Notes: a model not told the origin generated them from the letters alone. DNA of 58,290 nucleotides from Rubrivivax sp. (GCA_044506225.1 JBIQKU010000001.1:1-58290); one strand, 5' to 3'. Counted from the first letter of the stretch, positions 50,433-57,992 are shown. Numbers and translations: made by a program.

Positions 50433-50859
50433 CTTGCCTTTGCATCGAACTGGCAGCCTTTGGCAGCCGATGCGCAACTTGTCTGAAACTGCCGCCAGCG
50501 GGTGGCAGTGAGACCGTGTTGTATCACCTAGCGTCTGGGTTGAATATAGGGTTACCGCGAATCACCGGAGATTGTCAGAAGCGGTTCGGCGTCCAGGTGC
50601 ATGAACCATCAACACAGCCCGCCAAGCCTCATCATCCCCAGCATCGTCGCGCGTACTGAGGCAGCCTTTGTCGTTGTCCGCCCTACCCGGCCGGTGGTGG
50701 ATCGCGTCTCCTGTGCCAACGATCAGAAGCACACAACTCTCAGCGATAGGGAGCACGAAACCGAGAGACGATGAGACCGGTTTGTATCGCCTTTCGTCGA
50801 GCTTGAACACAGGGCTCATCACAAGAGTTGGGTGCGTTCTGGTGCATGCATGCACCAAC

Positions 50860-51640
50860 ATCAACACTGAATGCACGTTCTTCGTCACCTCCAACGGTTT
50901 CCATGGCGGCGAATGCCTCGTCGATGCGTTCGAGGGCCGCCGTGCACTGACCATGGCGTCAAGATCGAGGCGGCCTTGCCGGTACAGGTCGAGGTAGTGC
51001 GGCATGTCGAGCCGGAAGCGGTTCGAGCCCATGAAGGATCCGGTCACGCGGCGCTCGCTCAGCAGCCCTCTCGCATCGATCTTCAGTTCCTAGCCGGCCC
51101 GAACCGCGCCGACGAGGACCGCCAGCCCGCGCGGCGGGAGGCTGGCGAAGCACTGGGACAGCAGGTCGACGTGGCCGACGGCGTCGAAGGCGTAGTCAAC
51201 GCCTTCGCCGGTGAGATCGATCAGGGCGCCCACCGGCTCGTCGGCGGCGGACAGGATGGTGCGCGTTGCACCGAATCGGCGCGCGGCCTCGAGCTTGGCC
51301 GGCACGATGTCCACCGCGATGATCTGGCGGGCACCGGCCAGCCTCGCGCCCTGGATGATCGATGCCCCGACGCCGCCGCAGCCGAAGACCGCCACGCGCG
51401 ATCCCGGCTTGACCTTGGCGGTGTTCAGCGCCGCACCCATGCCGGCGAGCACGGTACAACCGAGCAGCGCCGCCCGGTCGAGTGGAATGTCCTTCTCGAT
51501 GCGCACCAGTGCCCGCTCGACACCAGCATGTACTGGGCGAGGGCGCCCAGGTCCGAGAACGGAAGGACCTTGGCACCGTCCTGACCGAGCCGAGACCGTG
51601 CGCCACGAGGACGGCGCGAGGGTGCGCGGTTCATGCAGAG
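50860..51640 (-). pseudogene. Degraded Zn-dependent alcohol dehydrogenase (MDR family), 5'-truncated
   Basis: The Rossmann part (VAVFGCGGVGASIIQGARLAGA..IIAVD) ends at an in-frame TAG (51090-51092). Homology continues in frame (GSFMGSNRFRLDMPHYLDLYRQGRLDLD). There are frameshifts near 51520 and 50940, and the N-terminal ~140 aa are missing. Confidence 0.75.
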
Positions 51641-51660: not shown

Positions 51661-51825
51661 GTGAAAGCGACTCGCGCGGCGAGCGGGGTGAAGCGCCGCA
51701 AGAAGAAGCCACCAGTCAAGTTCAAGGACGACGCGGGCGATCGGTGGACGAGGCGCGGCTTGCAGCCGCACTGGCTACGCGATGCACTCGCAGCCGGCAA
51801 GAAACTGGACGACTTTCGCGCCTGA
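51661..51825 (+). pseudogene. Fragment encoding only the C-terminal DNA-binding domain of an H-NS-like protein
   Basis: End of ORF 51211..51825: KKKPPVKFKDDAGDRWTRRGLQPHWLRDALAAGKKLDDFRA matches the H-NS/Bv3F C-terminal motif (W.GRG..P.W). No oligomerisation domain lies upstream, and the fragment abuts the ADH pseudogene. Confidence 0.6.
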
Positions 51826-51951: not shown

Positions 51952-52449
51952 TCACTGATAGGCGCCGCTTTCGAGAGCGCCAAGCAGCCGCGAGACCAGC
52001 CGAGCGCCTGTCGGAGTGGCGATCAACTCGGCGGGCCTTCTTCCACCCAGCGCCGGCTGGCGCACTTCTATCCAGCGCCCCAACCACTTCGCGACGTCAA
52101 GGTCTGCAGCCTCGGCTGAGGTCGAGCATTGATTGATTTCCTGAGCTCTCAACAGCAGATCGATGAAAGCCAATGCCGCATGGCCGGGCGATCCGGCAAC
52201 ACGCCCTTCCCTGTCGCCCGGCGCCGTACTCGTCCGGGGCAGTTCGAGGATTTTGAGAAGGTGAGCGGCAGATATGCCGAGCCGCGCGGCGAAGCCCCTG
52301 AGAAAGGGCAGCGTCACGCCCCGCCGCTCGAGCTCGATCCGTTCAATCGGCGTGGCCTCGGCGACGCGTCGCAAGAAGACATCGATCTCCTCGTCTGCTG
52401 CCGTGTCGCTCGAAGCACCACCGGCTTGCTTCATGCTGCGCGTTCTCAT
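51952..52449 (-). CDS. Xre-like/DUF2384 (MbcA/ParS-type) antitoxin-like protein
   Basis: ORF 51952..52449 (165 aa). The C-terminus, W...W...PALGGRRPAELIATPTGARLVSRLLGALESGAY, is the DUF2384 signature. No RES-domain partner lies downstream. Confidence 0.75.
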   Translation of the reverse strand: MRTRSMKQAGGASSDTAADEEIDVFLRRVAEATPIERIELERRGVTLPFLRGFAARLGISAAHLLKILELPRTSTAPGDREGRVAGSPGHAALAFIDLLLRAQEINQCSTSAEAADLDVAKWLGRWIEVRQPALGGRRPAELIATPTGARLVSRLLGALESGAYQ

Positions 52450-52464
52450 CGATACCGGGCCCGT

Positions 52465-53688
52465 TCAGTGCAGCTTCGGCCCGTCATCAGTCAGCACCCC
52501 GATCTCGTCGCACACCTGCGCCTCGGTGATCACCTCGCGGCTGTCGCGAACGGCCGCCGCCACGGCCTTCTCTACCGTGCGCAAGATCAGCCGCGGGCTC
52601 AGGTGTGCCAGCACATAGATGGCCTGCCGCTCGAACCTCACCCGCTCCCGAAGCCCCAGCCGTTCCAGCACCGAACTCACGATCTGCGAGGCGACTTGCA
52701 CGGACTGCTCCGGTGACGGCGGCGCAACGGTGAAAATCTCCATGCGGCTGAGCAACGGCGCTTGCATCCCGCGGATGCTGTTGGCCGTGGCAATGTAGGT
52801 GGTCAGGCTCGCATCGAGCTCGATCTCGGTGGAAGCGTCGACGGTATGCCGGGCGTTCTGCGGCTCCAGCGCCCCGTGCAACTGCCCCAGCGGGTCGCCC
52901 CGCCGTCCGCTGTCGCTGGCCGCCTTGTCGAGCTCGTCCAGCAGGATCACCGGGTTGGCGGCATCCCCCAGCGCGATCAGCTTGAACAACAGCCCCGACT
53001 CGCTGTTGCTCCAGTGCTTGTCCGAACCGCGCAGCTGTGTGCCGGCGCTCGGCTGGTCGAATGCGATGGAGGCGTACGGAGCGCCGAGCAATTGCGCGAG
53101 CCGATGGCTGAACAACGTCTTGCCGATGCCCGGCGGCCCGAGCAGCAGCATGGGCGGGATGCGTACCGGCACGTTCGTCGCCTCGGCCACCGCGAGCGAG
53201 TTGCGGATAAGCCGGACGGGGCCGCTGAAGTTCGGCAGTTCTGCCTCGAGCGTGTCCAGCGCTTCGCTGGCATTGTCCGGGCGCGCGACGCGCCGGTCCG
53301 GGCCTAGCTTGACGAGACGCTCGCGCAGCAGGCGCTGGCGCTCACGCGTGTCGTGGTCGGCGCTGCCGATCTTTACGTCCTCGTCGGACCATTCGCCGAT
53401 CTGCTCGGCGAACCGAGGAAGGACGCGGTAGAACCCCTGCTTCGGCTCGGACGGACCATCGATCACGCCAACCCGGGTGCCGTTTCGCACGTCCGCGGAT
53501 TTGGCGGCCTTGCGCTCCTTGCGGCGCTGCCTGGCCCGCTCTTGCGCTTGCCTCGCGCGTTCCCGCTGCGTCTCGTCCGCCATCATGTCGTCCGCCACGT
53601 CCTGTGGAACGGCGATCGTGTGACCGGACACGGTACGCACCAGCGTATAGCCGGCCGGCAGCCGACCCGAGTCGCGACGCACCGTCAT
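52465..53688 (-). CDS. Lon-like AAA+ ATPase lacking a protease domain, with a unique ~185-aa N-terminal region
   Basis: ORF 52465..53715 trimmed to MTVRRD (ATG 53688, ATGA overlap with the upstream stop). Walker A GPPGIGKT (53116-53139), Walker B ILLDELDK. Lon-type blocks RGDPLGQLHGALEPQN, ATANS, PLLSRMEIF. Confidence 0.75.
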   Translation of the reverse strand: MTVRRDSGRLPAGYTLVRTVSGHTIAVPQDVADDMMADETQRERARQAQERARQRRKERKAAKSADVRNGTRVGVIDGPSEPKQGFYRVLPRFAEQIGEWSDEDVKIGSADHDTRERQRLLRERLVKLGPDRRVARPDNASEALDTLEAELPNFSGPVRLIRNSLAVAEATNVPVRIPPMLLLGPPGIGKTLFSHRLAQLLGAPYASIAFDQPSAGTQLRGSDKHWSNSESGLLFKLIALGDAANPVILLDELDKAASDSGRRGDPLGQLHGALEPQNARHTVDASTEIELDASLTTYIATANSIRGMQAPLLSRMEIFTVAPPSPEQSVQVASQIVSSVLERLGLRERVRFERQAIYVLAHLSPRLILRTVEKAVAAAVRDSREVITEAQVCDEIGVLTDDGPKLH

Positions 53689-54884
53689 GCCGAGGCTCCA
53701 TGGCGCGTATCGCACTCTGGAGCGAACCAGGATGCGCTCACGGCCTGGCGCACGGCGATGCGAAGGCGCTGCAGACGCCGCCCCCGACCGGTGCTGGTGT
53801 CAGGTGGCGCCTTCTCGAGGAGAGCCTGCAGCTCACCCGCCACGGCGGGCGCAACCCGTTCGAGCCGCTGGAGCGCCTGAGATAAGCGCGGCAGTGTGCC
53901 GGCATGTGGCTCGAGTCCGCCCACGCTGCGCGGGGCGTCCGCCGACAGGCGCCGATCGCCGACCTTGCCCAGGTCGAACAGCAGCGCGGCTACGGTCGCG
54001 AGATCTCGCTCGTGCTCGGAGGCATGGCATTGTGCGTAGGCAATCTCCGCGGCGCAAACGCTCTGGTCGAAGAGCCCACCGGGGTAGCCATGGTGGTCGG
54101 CAGCGCCGATGCGCCACAGGAACCGTCGCTGCAGCCGGCTGTCGACCATCGCGGCGATGAAGGCCGCTTGCAATTCGGGCGCCAGGCGACTCAGCAGCGT
54201 GCGTAGGCGGGCTTGGTGAGCAAGTCGCACATGAGCCACGACGGGCGCCCAGGCGGCGTCGCCCTGCTGCAGCAGTTGGGGCGCGGCTGGCTGGATCGAG
54301 AAGACGCTCGGGTGTGACCGGTCCTTGTCGAATGCGCGACGCAAGCGGACATGGACCCAGTCGCCTTCTGCGAGGTCGCCGAGCTGGTCGCGATTCAGGC
54401 GGACGGTCAGACGCCCGATGGACAACTGCAGCGCGCACTCCATGCGCCCGGCCCAGCCGAGTTCGATGCGCTCGATCCGCCCGAGTACGTTGGTCACCGG
54501 GCCGCGCGGCAAGACGTCGGTGAGATCGGGGGCCTTGGCCGTCGTCTCGGGAAGGTACGGAAAGCTCTTCACGGTCGGGCGCACGGGAGGCTTGACCGCC
54601 GGCGGCCGCGCACCCTCTTCCACGACGGTGCGGCAGCAAAGCAGCTGCCACCGATGCGTGGCATCGGGCGCTGCGTGCTTGAGGCGCAGCAAAACGGCGC
54701 TCACCTGCGCGCCGGGCGCGAGATGCGGCAGATGAACATCCGCGAAGTCGCTAAGCGCATGCAGCTCACCGTCGGCGGTGTCGAGCACGCACGCGACATG
54801 ACCGAGAGGGGTCAGCGAGGCCGAGACGACCCGGCCGGTGACGGTGCGAACGCGCTGGCTTTGGGGCACATCGTGGAGGGACAT
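53685..54884 (-). CDS. Protein with two OB-fold-like segments and a degenerate HD-type domain (YhaM / TraI_2-like)
   Basis: ORF 53685..54962 trimmed to MSLHDVP (ATG 54884, GGAG upstream). HHGYPGGLFDQS (54060-54095) and LLFDLGK (53964-53984) parallel the HH..GGL..H(S/T) and LLHD.GK motifs, but the second His and the HD His are replaced. Confidence 0.6.
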   Translation of the reverse strand: MSLHDVPQSQRVRTVTGRVVSASLTPLGHVACVLDTADGELHALSDFADVHLPHLAPGAQVSAVLLRLKHAAPDATHRWQLLCCRTVVEEGARPPAVKPPVRPTVKSFPYLPETTAKAPDLTDVLPRGPVTNVLGRIERIELGWAGRMECALQLSIGRLTVRLNRDQLGDLAEGDWVHVRLRRAFDKDRSHPSVFSIQPAAPQLLQQGDAAWAPVVAHVRLAHQARLRTLLSRLAPELQAAFIAAMVDSRLQRRFLWRIGAADHHGYPGGLFDQSVCAAEIAYAQCHASEHERDLATVAALLFDLGKVGDRRLSADAPRSVGGLEPHAGTLPRLSQALQRLERVAPAVAGELQALLEKAPPDTSTGRGRRLQRLRIAVRQAVSASWFAPECDTRHGASA

Positions 54885-55029: not shown

Positions 55030-56361
55030 CTAGTGGCTCAGCTCGAGCTGCCGCAGCAGGCTGGGCGGTGGCTGGGCGGACGGCGGGGGGCCGGCGTCAT
55101 CGGCTGAGCGCGCCGGGACGGTGGTGAGGGGCGTCGGTGCAGAGGCCAGCGCCGCCCCGCTCGCAAAGCGCGTCGCCAGCAACCGGTCGATGGCCGAGCC
55201 GTCCTGGCGAGTGAGGTTGGGCACGTAGCGGCTGTAGACCCGAAACAGCATCTCGGTGCTCGTGTGGCCAAGCTGACGTGCGATCCACTCGGGCGCCTCA
55301 CCGGACGCCAGCCACAGCGTGGCTGCGGTGTGGCGCATCTGATAGGGCCGCCGGGGCTTCAAGCCGAGGTGGCGCAGCAGCGGGTTCCACACGCGGTCGG
55401 TGAAGTTCTTGTTGTCCAGCGGCTTGCCCTCTCGGTTGCAGAAGACGTAGTCACTGAGCTTGGCGGTGGCTGTGTGTTGGCGCCGCAGCGCCTCGAACAC
55501 CACCTGGTTCATGCGGATCTCGCGCTGGGAGCCGTCGGTCTTGGTGTACTCGTCCTCGCCGAGCACGAAGGTTTCGCGCACAAGGATCAGACGGTTGGCG
55601 AAGTCGACGTACTTCCACTTCAGACCATGGATCTCGCCGGTGCGCATGCCGGTGAAGAACCTCACGGTGAAGTAGTCGCGATAGTCCACACGCACGGTGC
55701 GCAGCATGAGTTGCACCTCGTCAAGGGTGAAGGGCTCGACATCGGTCTTGCGCACGCGCAGGGGTTTCAGCGTAAGCACCGGTGAGGTGAAACCGTAGCG
55801 GTCGGCGGCTTCGTTGAGGATCTGGCGCAGCGGGGCGAGGATGCCGTTGATGCGTTTGGTCGACAGGCCAGTGCGTTGTCCTCGGCCGGGCAATGCGGCA
55901 AGCTTGGTGCGGAACGCGAGTACGTCTGCCTTGGTGATGCTGCCCACGGGCTTGGCGCCGAAGAACGGCGTCAGGTGAGCGTCGATGGTGGAGCGCAGCA
56001 CCTTGATGTGGGAGCGGCGCCATTCGATTTCGTGGTCGGCGAACCACTGGGCAGAGAACTCATAGAACGACGGCGTGCTTGGCGCCACCTCTGCGGTAGC
56101 AACAGGAGCCGCAGTGACGCGTGACTCCGTTGCAGCTTGATCCACGCTCGCAGCCGACGCAGGCTTTCCGTTTGGGAAGTACGCGGCATAGTCGAATGTG
56201 CCGGCCAAAATTTCCCTCTCAACCTTGTCGAGGACCTTTTGCAGGCGCTTCCGGTTGGCCTCCGTGTCAGGCAACAGGGTCTGCTCACGGCAGCGCTGAC
56301 CGCGATACCGGAAATCCATGAAGAGGAAGCCGCTCTCTTTGCGGCAGCGGATGCTACCCAT
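55030..56361 (-). CDS. int: Tyrosine integrase with N-terminal arm-binding (DUF3596-type) domain
   Basis: ORF 55030..56394 trimmed to MGSIRCRK. FLFMDFRYRGQRCREQT N-terminus. Catalytic TGMRTGE, HQMRHTAAT, LGHTSTEMLFRVYSRY. Confidence 0.9.
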   Translation of the reverse strand: MGSIRCRKESGFLFMDFRYRGQRCREQTLLPDTEANRKRLQKVLDKVEREILAGTFDYAAYFPNGKPASAASVDQAATESRVTAAPVATAEVAPSTPSFYEFSAQWFADHEIEWRRSHIKVLRSTIDAHLTPFFGAKPVGSITKADVLAFRTKLAALPGRGQRTGLSTKRINGILAPLRQILNEAADRYGFTSPVLTLKPLRVRKTDVEPFTLDEVQLMLRTVRVDYRDYFTVRFFTGMRTGEIHGLKWKYVDFANRLILVRETFVLGEDEYTKTDGSQREIRMNQVVFEALRRQHTATAKLSDYVFCNREGKPLDNKNFTDRVWNPLLRHLGLKPRRPYQMRHTAATLWLASGEAPEWIARQLGHTSTEMLFRVYSRYVPNLTRQDGSAIDRLLATRFASGAALASAPTPLTTVPARSADDAGPPPSAQPPPSLLRQLELSH

Positions 56362-56593
56362 GGAGAACGACTCCGCTCGCCATCGGAATCGCATGGGCCT
56401 TGACGTGAGACACGGACGCCATGTCGCGCTCGATGTTCTCCCAGATGTACAGGATCTTGCGGCCGCCGAACGGGCGAACGTAGTGCTCGCCTTCGAGCAA
56501 TACGCTGTCCTTGAGACGCTCGCGGATCGTCCGCTGGTCGTACTTGATGCGAGCGGACAGCTCGTCGGTGGTCAGGTAAGTGACATCGGGCAC
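56354..56593 (-). CDS. Small excisionase-like / DNA-binding protein upstream of int
   Basis: ORF 56354..56638. GTG 56593 follows AAGGAG by 6 nt. The 79 aa (YLTTDELSARIKYDQRTIRERLKD) are HTH-like. The 3' end overlaps the int start by 8 nt. Confidence 0.55.
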   Translation of the reverse strand: MPDVTYLTTDELSARIKYDQRTIRERLKDSVLLEGEHYVRPFGGRKILYIWENIERDMASVSHVKAHAIPMASGVVLHG

Positions 56594-56658
56594 TTCTCTC
56601 TCCTTGACAGACGTGGAACAATCACCGAAGCAAAACATCCTGCAAACAGTCGTTTTGT

Positions 56659-56722
56659 CGTTCTGGATGACATTATGCGCCGCTAAATGTTATTGTCAAG
56701 GGCATTTTGGCGTTCTGGATGA
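56659..56722. promoter_or_regulatory. Two direct repeats CGTTCTGGATGA spaced 52 bp apart in the divergent xis-int / XRE promoter region
   Basis: Copies at 56659-56670 and 56711-56722, both followed by (C/A)ATT. The local sequence is AT-rich relative to its surroundings. Confidence 0.55.
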
Positions 56723-56770
56723 AATTTCTTCCTGGAGAAGATCCTGATCAAGTGCCACCTCTCACGACTG

Positions 56771-56965
56771 ATGGGCGAACACAAGCTCAAGATCGTCGAC
56801 GTCGCGAACGCCACAGGACTGCATCGCAACACGATCACGTTGCTCTACAACGAGACCGCGGCGCGAGTCGATTTGGACGCGATTGATCGCCTGTGCACCC
56901 TGTTCAACGTGCCTGTCGGCGAGTTGTTCGAGCACGTGCCGTCGCCCGCCGAAGACAGGCAGTGA
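56771..56965 (+). CDS. XRE (Cro/CI-type) helix-turn-helix regulator
   Basis: ORF 56771..56965 (64 aa). KIVDVANATGLHRNTITLLYNE ... LCTLFNVPVGELFE. Confidence 0.85.
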   Translation: MGEHKLKIVDVANATGLHRNTITLLYNETAARVDLDAIDRLCTLFNVPVGELFEHVPSPAEDRQ

Positions 56966-57011: not shown

Positions 57012-57539
57012 ATGGATGTCTGCGATCTTTTCGCGTTAGGGTCTCGCGTGGGCGACAAGCTCGCAACCCGCGGTGAGACGATCGCGATAGCAGAGTCTTC
57101 GGCGGGTGGGTTGATTTCGGCGGCGCTGCTCTCTCGCGCAGGCGCTTCCGAGTACTACTTGGGTGGCGCGACGCTGTACACGCGTCGCTCGTTTCGACTC
57201 TTGACTGCGCTCACGCCGCAACACACCACGGGCATGCGCTCCTCGAGCGCGCCGTACGCCAAGTTGCTCGCACAGCACCAGCGTACGCGCTTCCGAGCGA
57301 ACTGGGGCTTAGCGGAGACTGGTGCCGCCGGACCGACAGGCAACCGGTACGGAGACCCCCCCGGTCACACCTGCTTGGCCGTCGATGGCCCGACAAATCG
57401 TGAGCGTGTGCTGCGCACCGATAGCGCTGATCGAGCGGAAAACATGATCGCGTTCGCGATGGCCGCACTCGAACTGCTTGAAGAAGCCCTTGACGCTACA
57501 CACGGGTCGGGCCAAGCGCTACCCGACATTGATAGCTGA
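57012..57539 (+). CDS. CinA-family (PncC-type NMN amidohydrolase domain) protein
   Basis: In-frame ATG 57012 within ORF 56883..57539. IAIAESSAGGLISAAL and GLAETGAAGP motifs. Confidence 0.8.
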   Translation: MDVCDLFALGSRVGDKLATRGETIAIAESSAGGLISAALLSRAGASEYYLGGATLYTRRSFRLLTALTPQHTTGMRSSSAPYAKLLAQHQRTRFRANWGLAETGAAGPTGNRYGDPPGHTCLAVDGPTNRERVLRTDSADRAENMIAFAMAALELLEEALDATHGSGQALPDIDS

Positions 57540-57903
57540 CACCTCGCCTCCGCGCCTGTGCAGACGCGCACGCGCGACATCAGCGACAGCGACGTGTCGC
57601 TCCGCAGCAGACGAGCGGCCGCGAAGGTCCGCTCGGCAGCGGTTGCTGCCGGTCGACTCGGCGGAGCGAAATCACGCTGACTGCCATCAAGCGGTCTCTC
57701 GCATTGGATTTGGCGGACTCTGCGAAGGTCAGCTGATCAGGTACTGCGGTCGTAGACCGGCGCACGGAGGCCGAGGCGGTCGGTGACCGCTTCCTCATCT
57801 GCCGTAGTGGCGAAACCGACCCGTAGGCGACATCGGCGACTGCGTCGTGTCACACGAGAGTGGACGCCCAACGTTCGAACTAACCGGCCTGCGGAGGCAA
57901 GCG

Positions 57904-57955
57904 CCGTAAGCCCGGCCTGAGATGATGCACCATGTGCCTCAGGCCGGGCTTACGG
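57904..57955. repeat. Perfect 18-bp inverted repeat with a 16-nt loop
   Basis: CCGTAAGCCCGGCCTGAG (57904-57921) and CTCAGGCCGGGCTTACGG (57938-57955). Sits 38 bp from the IS end. Confidence 0.8.
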
Positions 57956-57992
57956 TGCTTTCCGTAGCGGGTCCCGTTGAGCGAGGGGTTAG

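Follow-up and report, generated by a model that had tools for sequence, protein, structure and literature searches.

Organisation of the locus

We analysed a stretch of 58,290 nucleotides (nt) from Rubrivivax sp. (GCA_044506225.1 JBIQKU010000001.1:1-58290), hereafter the window, with focus on three adjacent genes, g1, g2 and g3, that lie downstream of a tyrosine integrase gene (int) on the same strand. A first-pass annotation had described them as a three-gene module and proposed a three-component toxin-antitoxin (TA), abortive-infection or island-maintenance system. The positions and spacing of the three open reading frames (ORFs) proved to be as annotated; the stop codon of g1 and the ATG of g2 share an ATGA overlap, and 15 nt separate the g2 stop from the start of g3 (Table 1). 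The integrase was recognised by Pfam (Arm-DNA-bind_2, 2e-23; Phage_integrase, 1e-20) as well as by PHROG (2e-60).

Upstream of these genes, at 56.7 kb, we found a switch region in which two promoters are bracketed by direct repeats of 22 nt each (56653-56674 and 56705-56726). The minus-strand promoter reads into the genes (TTGACA-16-CATAAT, 56699-56672) and matches the consensus at 11 of 12 positions, while the plus-strand promoter (56667-56696) points away from them. No promoter-like site was detected between the switch and g3, hence g3 has no promoter of its own, and between int and g3 we detected neither a promoter-like site nor a convincing terminator. Because a single near-consensus promoter is flanked by operator repeats and no convincing terminator follows up to g3, we infer that the xis-like gene, int, g1, g2 and g3 form one repressor-controlled operon of five genes, with the trio as its distal end. 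The trio is therefore hardly the independent unit first proposed, as its genes seem to be co-transcribed with the xis-like gene and int, and g3 comes last with no toxin gene after it. The 79 amino acid (aa) product of the first operon gene gave no match in Pfam, NCBIfam or PHROG; its position and its helix-turn-helix (HTH)-like sequence suggest a Xis-like role.

Table 1. Positions of the operon genes, their control region, the neighbouring features and two types of accessory gene in related loci
Feature	Position	Strand	Description
g1	53685-54884	minus	399 aa; tandem OB folds and degenerate (pseudo-)HD domain; ATG preceded by AGGAG ribosome-binding site
g2	52465-53688	minus	407 aa; AAA+ ATPase derived from LonA; protease and LAN domain absent
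g3	51952-52449	minus	165 aa; orphan Xre/ParS (DUF2384) antitoxin homologue in the variable accessory slot of the operon
int	55030-56361/56394	minus	Tyrosine integrase (Arm-DNA-bind_2, SAM-like and catalytic domain); Pfam, PHROG
xis-like gene	56354-56593	minus	Small Xis/AlpA-like protein, 79 aa; GTG start after AAGGAG; overlaps int; operon gene 1
Promoter switch	56653-56726	both	Two promoters back to back; two operator-like direct repeats of 22 nt
HTH_26 repressor gene	56771-56965	plus	Cro/CI-type, 64 aa; divergent to the operon; Pfam HTH_26 8e-16
H-NS mini-ORF	51688-51825	plus	45 aa; H-NS C-terminal DNA-binding domain only; Pfam Histone_HNS 1e-9; convergent with g3
Zn-ADH pseudogene	50562-51600	minus	Zinc-type alcohol dehydrogenase; about 150 first residues missing, frameshifted
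CinA/PncC-like gene	57012-57539	plus	Pfam CinA 1e-34; starts 47 nt after the HTH_26 gene, same strand
LAGLIDADG endonuclease gene (relatives)	L004 4925-5410; L011 8408-8914; L145 10984-11460; L156 1430-1942; L017 7515-9386		Intact LAGLIDADG-type motif
DEDDh/Xre-C fusion gene (relatives)	L011 11350-12084; L136 7582-8373; L146; L147		DEDDh-like exonuclease with C-terminal Xre_MbcA_ParS_C, 244-263 aa, in the g3 slot

Tandem OB folds and a degenerate HD domain in g1

The g1 protein had no sequence match in Pfam, PADLOC or PDB, and a PDB sequence search started from the g1 profile was likewise empty. An AlphaFold model built from 15 homologues (predicted local distance difference test, pLDDT, 74) shows beta-barrels at residues 12-86 and 130-199, followed by a helical domain. 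Foldseek searches with this model returned tandem-OB proteins from PDB (HIN-200, RPA70, POT1/TEBP, the Deinococcus single-stranded DNA-binding protein (SSB) DrSSB, and RecO), and LEF-3, a baculovirus SSB, from BFVD. The homologues of g1 are few; an exhaustive profile search gave only 34 clusters at E < 1e-30, and its tail consisted of proteins of about 300 aa with a Pfam HD domain, some with an OB fold, that carry the short HH..GGL motif of TraI_2. When g1 was aligned profile to profile with these OB+HD (YhaM/TraI_2-like) proteins, hhalign gave a probability of 99.7% (E 5.5e-26) over 236 columns. AlphaFold, Foldseek and hhalign thus agree with the first-pass view of two OB segments and a YhaM/TraI_2-like HD region with replaced residues.

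In the hhalign alignment the g1 segment HHGYPGGLFDQS (also AADHHGYPGGLFDQS) stands opposite HHHxxPGGLLEHS, and ALLFDLGK (LLFDLGK) opposite ALLHDIGK (LLHDIGK). The metal ligands of the HD domain are mostly replaced, EH by DQ, HD by FD and the terminal D by A or V, and these variant motifs are invariant in 15 of 15 aligned family members. As the substitutions are invariant across the family, the HD pocket of g1 appears to be degenerate yet under selection, and as the site is degenerate in every member, a role as nuclease toxin is unlikely. We also rejected g1 as a fragment of a MOBH relaxase, a possibility raised in the first pass: a TraI_2 match is absent, 399 aa is too short, and the HH..GGL motif is touched only by the distant OB+HD relatives and not by g1 itself.

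In most relatives g1 is split in two, a protein of about 115 aa with the first OB fold and one of about 285 aa with the second OB fold and the pseudo-HD domain. The fused form is limited to the clade of the window.

A Lon-type ATPase without protease

The g2 protein matched AAA in Pfam (8e-13), the NCBIfam lon model TIGR00763 (3e-24, AAA region only) and Lon in PDB (3e-22), and the top 50 of 50 Foldseek matches of its model (pLDDT 85) were LonA. Both the protease domain (Lon_C) and the LAN domain are missing according to Pfam and the model, and the C-terminus lies about 20 residues past the lid domain. The annotation of g2 as a Lon AAA+ module without protease therefore stood, whereas the unique N-terminal part had been set too long at about 185 residues; only the first 110 or so are unique, and residues from about 110 to 185 align with the helical region that precedes the AAA+ module in Lon. 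The model of the N-terminus contains only a beta-hairpin and a charged helix of 40 residues.

Walker A, Walker B, sensor 1, the Arg finger and sensor 2 were invariant in 37 homologues, in which the Trp of the pore loop was nearly invariant, so the aromatic pore loop is kept. As the protease is missing, g2 is not expected to degrade an antitoxin in the manner of Lon. Hundreds of full-length homologues with 46-77% identity were found, mostly in metagenomes and further in Methylibium, Roseateles, Rhizobacter and Rubrivivax. When genome contigs were scanned with the g2 profile only three true family loci were seen, and the remaining matches (34-42% identity) probably represent the AAA+ region of ordinary Lon genes.

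Conservation of the g1-g2 pair

To compare gene order we built a synteny table by tblastn over 25 distinct related loci, 22 of which were readable for the AAA+ position. The AAA+ gene follows g1 in 19 of these 22, and a g1 homologue lies immediately upstream in all nine neighbourhoods fetched from g2 homologues. Overlaps by ATGA or by 4 nt between genes are common in the family. Seen across the relatives, g1 and g2 make up a conserved and apparently translationally coupled core pair, and the linkage claimed for the trio holds for these two genes, whereas g3 is found in the closest clade only.

The recurrent order is a divergent HTH_26 or ribbon-helix-helix (RHH) repressor gene, then the xis-like gene, int, the OB gene (about 115 aa), the OB/pseudo-HD gene (about 285 aa), the AAA+ gene and variable genes. 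The proposed linkage to the integrase was thereby confirmed, although copies without integrase exist. All readable related loci have either an HTH_26 homologue or an RHH protein of 66-88 aa in the repressor position; the 79-aa xis-like protein is 62-79% identical to the product of a 78-aa gene before int in relatives, and the integrases of related loci are 61-98% identical. A repeat-flanked consensus promoter was also seen in most of 13 relatives inspected; such switches occur with HTH_26 as well as RHH repressors, and the sequences of their repeats are different. Homology between the window and L001, a Rhizobacter element, extends at the DNA level from 56575 to 51664. The H-NS mini-ORF lies inside this shared block, close to its end, and L001 has a 45-aa gene call in the corresponding position.

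A LAGLIDADG endonuclease gene occurs in some relatives at three positions, before g1, between g1 and g2, or fused to g1, and mostly where int is absent, deleted or not intact. This gene may be a selfish homing element or may provide another means of mobility. Strict mutual exclusion of the two genes was considered and rejected in favour of a tendency only, as L017 has both and L156 carries the LAGLIDADG gene and, at the edge of the contig, int or at least its C-terminal end.

g3 and the variable accessory slot

The g3 protein matched Xre_MbcA_ParS_C (PF09722, 3.5e-11) and ParS (6d0h, 6e-8). Its match to the NCBIfam model Xre_ParS_antitoxin (1e-12) was below the model's own cut-off and that to an Xre-like HTH was weak (0.0019). 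From these matches we take g3 to be a full-length homologue of Xre/ParS-type antitoxins, in line with the earlier description of an Xre-like/DUF2384 protein without a RES partner. Two RES proteins used as tblastn queries against the window and the related loci produced nothing above noise (E > 0.9), and neither a RES gene nor a remnant was found in the window or near any g3 linked to g1-g2. The 290 nt downstream of g3 contain the convergent H-NS mini-ORF. Orthologues of g3 with 64-84% identity occur in L001/L014 (a Rhizobacter metagenome-assembled genome), in L004/L005 and on a 4.6-kb contig, that is in three independent loci besides the window, all without RES. The next-closest homologues (about 50% identity) are ordinary antitoxins, and in two of the three contexts checked a RES gene overlaps their 3' end. 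The suggestion that a RES toxin had simply been deleted was rejected as far as a recent loss is concerned, since a remnant is absent and the g3 orthologues in the other g1-g2 loci lack RES likewise.

The accessory position lies either after g1-g2 or between both, and its contents differ by relative. Besides g3 (three loci and the window) we found a fusion of an exonuclease with the Xre-C domain (four loci), a protein of 129-147 aa without assigned family (five loci), and HAD_SAK_2, Metallophos or PTP proteins (at least 11 loci); some relatives of g1-g2 have nothing in the third slot. HAD_SAK_2 phosphatase genes are inserted between g1 and the AAA+ gene among L136, L137, L140, L154, L155 and L156, a Metallophos gene is found likewise in L154, and 4-nt overlaps were seen in L154 and L155. 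A PTP/DSP-like phosphatase fills the slot of some relatives. PDB sequence searches with the Metallophos and HAD partner proteins were empty. Most operon versions include phosphoesterases and the version of the window has none. Judged by this distribution, g3 seems to be one of several swappable add-ons outside the conserved pair.

The Xre_MbcA_ParS_C domain appears to have entered the slot twice, as g3 and in the exonuclease fusion. Because the same slot recruited this domain twice, the Xre-C domain may be functionally tied to the g1-g2 core. The DEDDh/Xre-C fusion is in itself an unusual deployment of the toxin-binding domain of an antitoxin.

These results bear directly on the three-component TA or island-addiction unit of the first-pass annotation, in which g1 would be a nuclease-like toxin, g3 the antitoxin and g2 a dedicated unfoldase controlling g3. 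In the closest clade three further independent loci have the complete trio, the genes of the trio are tightly linked, and the repeated recruitment of Xre-C would fit. Yet g3 is missing from most relatives that retain g1-g2, every family member has lost the HD ligands of g1, g2 has no protease, the order of the genes is not that of Xre-type systems and the RES gene is absent. We consequently regard a TA or abortive-infection unit of this kind as very unlikely.

The phosphoesterases point to another possibility, that the operon encodes healing of RNA or DNA ends (repair of the "Swiss Army Knife" type) that counters nuclease toxins. Relatives carry HAD_SAK_2, Metallophos, the DEDDh exonuclease domain and, at one locus, a weak PTP-SAK match below threshold (0.009), and the OB+HD ancestry of g1 is YhaM-like. 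But a ligase, kinase or nucleotidyltransferase is absent from every operon version, and the window has a degenerate HD domain and no phosphoesterase, and we consider end-healing highly improbable.

The element and its surroundings

The operon belongs to integrative genomic islands of an uncharacterised family, whose members come mainly from Burkholderiales-type bacteria (Rhizobacter, Rubrivivax, Methylibium, Roseateles). A phage or satellite origin was rejected, since close relatives of g1 and g2 are absent from IMG/VR and PHROG matches were only generic. The same holds for a plasmid origin, as g1 had no plasmid match and g2 matched only "AAA family ATPase" genes of about 35% identity with other neighbours.

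The flanks of the operon differ between relatives. Gabija genes lie to the left of the repressor in L001 (2468-6087; GajA 2.8e-212, GajB 1.1e-189), GajA to the right of the operon in L136 (8562-9335), and a large N6-adenine methyltransferase gene of restriction-modification type lies beside the module in L004. In L006 and L137 genes without assigned function separate the repressor from a tRNA gene 4.5-7 kb beyond it; the window itself contains no tRNA gene. The flanks thus seem to be variable cargo, partly of defence or restriction-modification type. Because this flanking content varies while the repressor, the xis-like gene, int, g1 and g2 are constant, g1-g2 looks like part of the island backbone.

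A backbone position would suit replication or maintenance of the excised island, with g1 as an origin- or ssDNA-binding initiator or SSB-like factor and g2 as an ATP-driven loader or remodeller that keeps the circle alive. Replication after excision is common among integrative elements, the two genes are co-transcribed with the xis-like gene and int and conserved with the backbone, and the tandem OB region of g1 resembles RPA, SSB and LEF-3. On the other hand, g1 and g2 have no similarity to a known initiator, primase, helicase or relaxase, a role in replication is not known for the Lon clade, and iterons or origin-like repeats were not seen. It would also leave the phosphoesterases interleaved in the operon unexplained, and copies without integrase exist. 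Overall we consider this role rather unlikely.

The defence genes next to the module raise the possibility of a new anti-phage or abortive-infection system, in which g1 would sense foreign nucleic acid and g2 supply the motor; the LAGLIDADG nuclease, the exonuclease fusion and the phosphoesterases, as variable partners, would be effectors or modulators. Conflict systems typically shuffle and displace the partners of an ATPase core, Gabija and methyltransferase genes adjoin the module, and self-regulated cassette copies exist without integrase. However, the module sits behind a repressed promoter together with int and not in the cargo region, the version in the window has no recognisable effector (the HD domain is degenerate, a nuclease is absent and g3 is of antitoxin type), and PADLOC gave no match above noise. 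We find such a system unlikely, though the integrase-less self-regulated copies and the shuffled partners keep the reading as a conflict cassette alive. In PADLOC-DB 2.0 g1 and g3 had no match and g2 only P-loop-level matches (1.9e-4 or weaker), and the accessory proteins of relatives matched nothing, apart from hits of the LAGLIDADG gene to generic homing-endonuclease (HEase) models. As PADLOC returned no significant match for any component, a known defence system was ruled out.

Among the neighbouring features of the window, the Zn-ADH pseudogene directly adjoins the end of the shared element block (51664), beyond the H-NS mini-ORF, and may mark an insertion or deletion scar. At the other side, the CinA/PncC-like gene is either island cargo or a host gene, and a hairpin with 26-nt arms (57896-57963) lies downstream of it. 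Further away, in positions 1-30000, the GC content declines, with values of about 0.70-0.73 at first, about 0.64 near 20 kb and 0.57-0.58 at 28-30 kb; the low-GC part may be another acquired segment.

Proposed function of the operon

Taken together, we favour a reading in which g1 is a nucleic-acid-binding adaptor and g2 an ATP-driven remodeller that act at induction or entry of the island, with a protective role for the accessory slot; we would give this a probability of roughly 0.4. The operon would be silent as long as the HTH_26 repressor is present, and fire upon induction or upon entry into a repressor-free cell. Int and the Xis-like protein would then move the island. As the tandem OB region resembles ssDNA binders, g1 is expected to bind nucleic acid, and its OB folds might hold single-stranded or otherwise exposed stretches, while the conserved, non-catalytic HD pocket could serve as a binding site. 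Further, g1 would recruit or dock a g2 hexamer. At excision or establishment this hexamer might spend ATP on stripping or remodelling proteins or nucleoprotein complexes. Protection of this step would fall to the accessory genes, in relatives to end-processing phosphoesterases and nucleases. In the window, g3 might act as an orphan antitoxin that neutralises RES-type NAD-targeting toxins encoded elsewhere, by the host or by rival elements.

We also consider a broader version, in which g1-g2 would form the centre of a modular mobile-element system not described so far. Here a pseudo-HD tandem-OB sensor or adaptor would direct a LonA-derived, protease-free unfoldase, and plug-in partners (SAK-type phosphoesterases, nucleases, Xre-C proteins) would disarm host or rival immunity at entry or induction; the Xre-C domain would then be a targeting or adaptor domain outside any TA pair. 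This version is possible but in our view doubtful.

Several points speak against the adaptor-remodeller reading. Lon-type AAA+ modules are protein unfoldases, and the candidate protein target of g2 is still hypothetical. The direction of action, be it on the island's own DNA, on host proteins or on rival elements, is a guess. Integrase-less copies with a repressor of their own were found in L004, L011, L013, L015, L143 and L145, and most of them have a LAGLIDADG gene; the module therefore persists without integrase, and a portable conflict cassette fits at least as well as a life-cycle function. In three loci (L143, L146 and L147) g1 occurs without the AAA+ gene. In the window and six relatives, repeat searches for att sites or island ends found nothing, or nothing beyond chance, and the term backbone hence refers to synteny alone. 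Finally, g3 could equally be a decaying remnant of an antitoxin, kept by chance in one clade. It should be noted that domain identity, operon structure and synteny set the frame of the model, and that everything mechanistic beyond them is inference.

If the core pair works as proposed, this would be the first case of an integrative element employing a Lon-derived AAA+ motor without its protease, and g1 would show a dead HD domain that strong selection retains as a module for binding. Natural experiments are available in the family, with g1 split or fused, the integrase present or absent, and at least six alternative accessory genes. It is also a clean case for studying whether mobile elements use orphan Xre/ParS antitoxins as anti-addiction or anti-defence factors, and a warning for annotation, as DUF2384 domain content alone is insufficient for calling TA loci.

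Comparison with known systems

Each of the domains is known, and the combination matches no named system, as the first-pass annotation had also concluded; we found no matching Pfam architecture, PADLOC model or relevant paper for it. With the Xre-RES type II TA systems (ParST, MbcTA, PrsAT) the operon shares g3, which is about 50% identical to antitoxins sitting upstream of RES and has the C-terminal toxin-binding domain (PF09722) along with the weak Xre-like HTH match. It differs in that no RES toxin lies directly downstream, that g3 closes an integrase operon of five genes rather than being part of a self-contained autoregulated bicistron with a promoter of its own, and that relatives replace g3 by unrelated genes.

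The second OB fold and the helical domain of g1 are homologous to YhaM-type OB+HD nucleases and to the HD region of MOBH (TraI_2) proteins. Compared with the YhaM type, g1 has an extra N-terminal OB fold, and the H...HD...D metal ligands are mostly replaced; compared with the MOBH relaxases, it lacks a TraI_2 match and any relaxase or helicase region. RNA repair systems, as Burroughs and Aravind are said to have set out in 2016, are reportedly ligase-centred, combining an RNA ligase (RtcB or ATP-grasp) with end-modifying enzymes. The present operons differ from such systems in that ligase, kinase and nucleotidyltransferase families are absent from every version, and phosphoesterases are found in relatives only.

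The LonA protease is the closest likeness of g2, whose AAA+ module and preceding helical region are Lon-type both by sequence and by predicted fold, with the ATPase residues and the aromatic pore loop kept. Unlike LonA, g2 has neither the C-terminal Ser-Lys protease domain nor the N-terminal LAN (PUA-like) substrate-binding domain; its N-terminus is unique, and its gene lies on a mobile element and is coupled to that of an OB/pseudo-HD protein.

Lastly, we compared the operon with establishment (early or leading-region) genes and with repressor-controlled xis-int operons of islands, satellites and integrative and conjugative elements (ICEs). Transfer or packaging functions were not found for this element, and its accessory genes have no counterpart among the described establishment, replication and anti-restriction genes. 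The layout is nevertheless of the same kind: the repressor is divergent and of CI or RHH type, operators accompany a consensus promoter, and the genes for excision and integration come first, ahead of accessory functions that would be expressed on induction or entry only.

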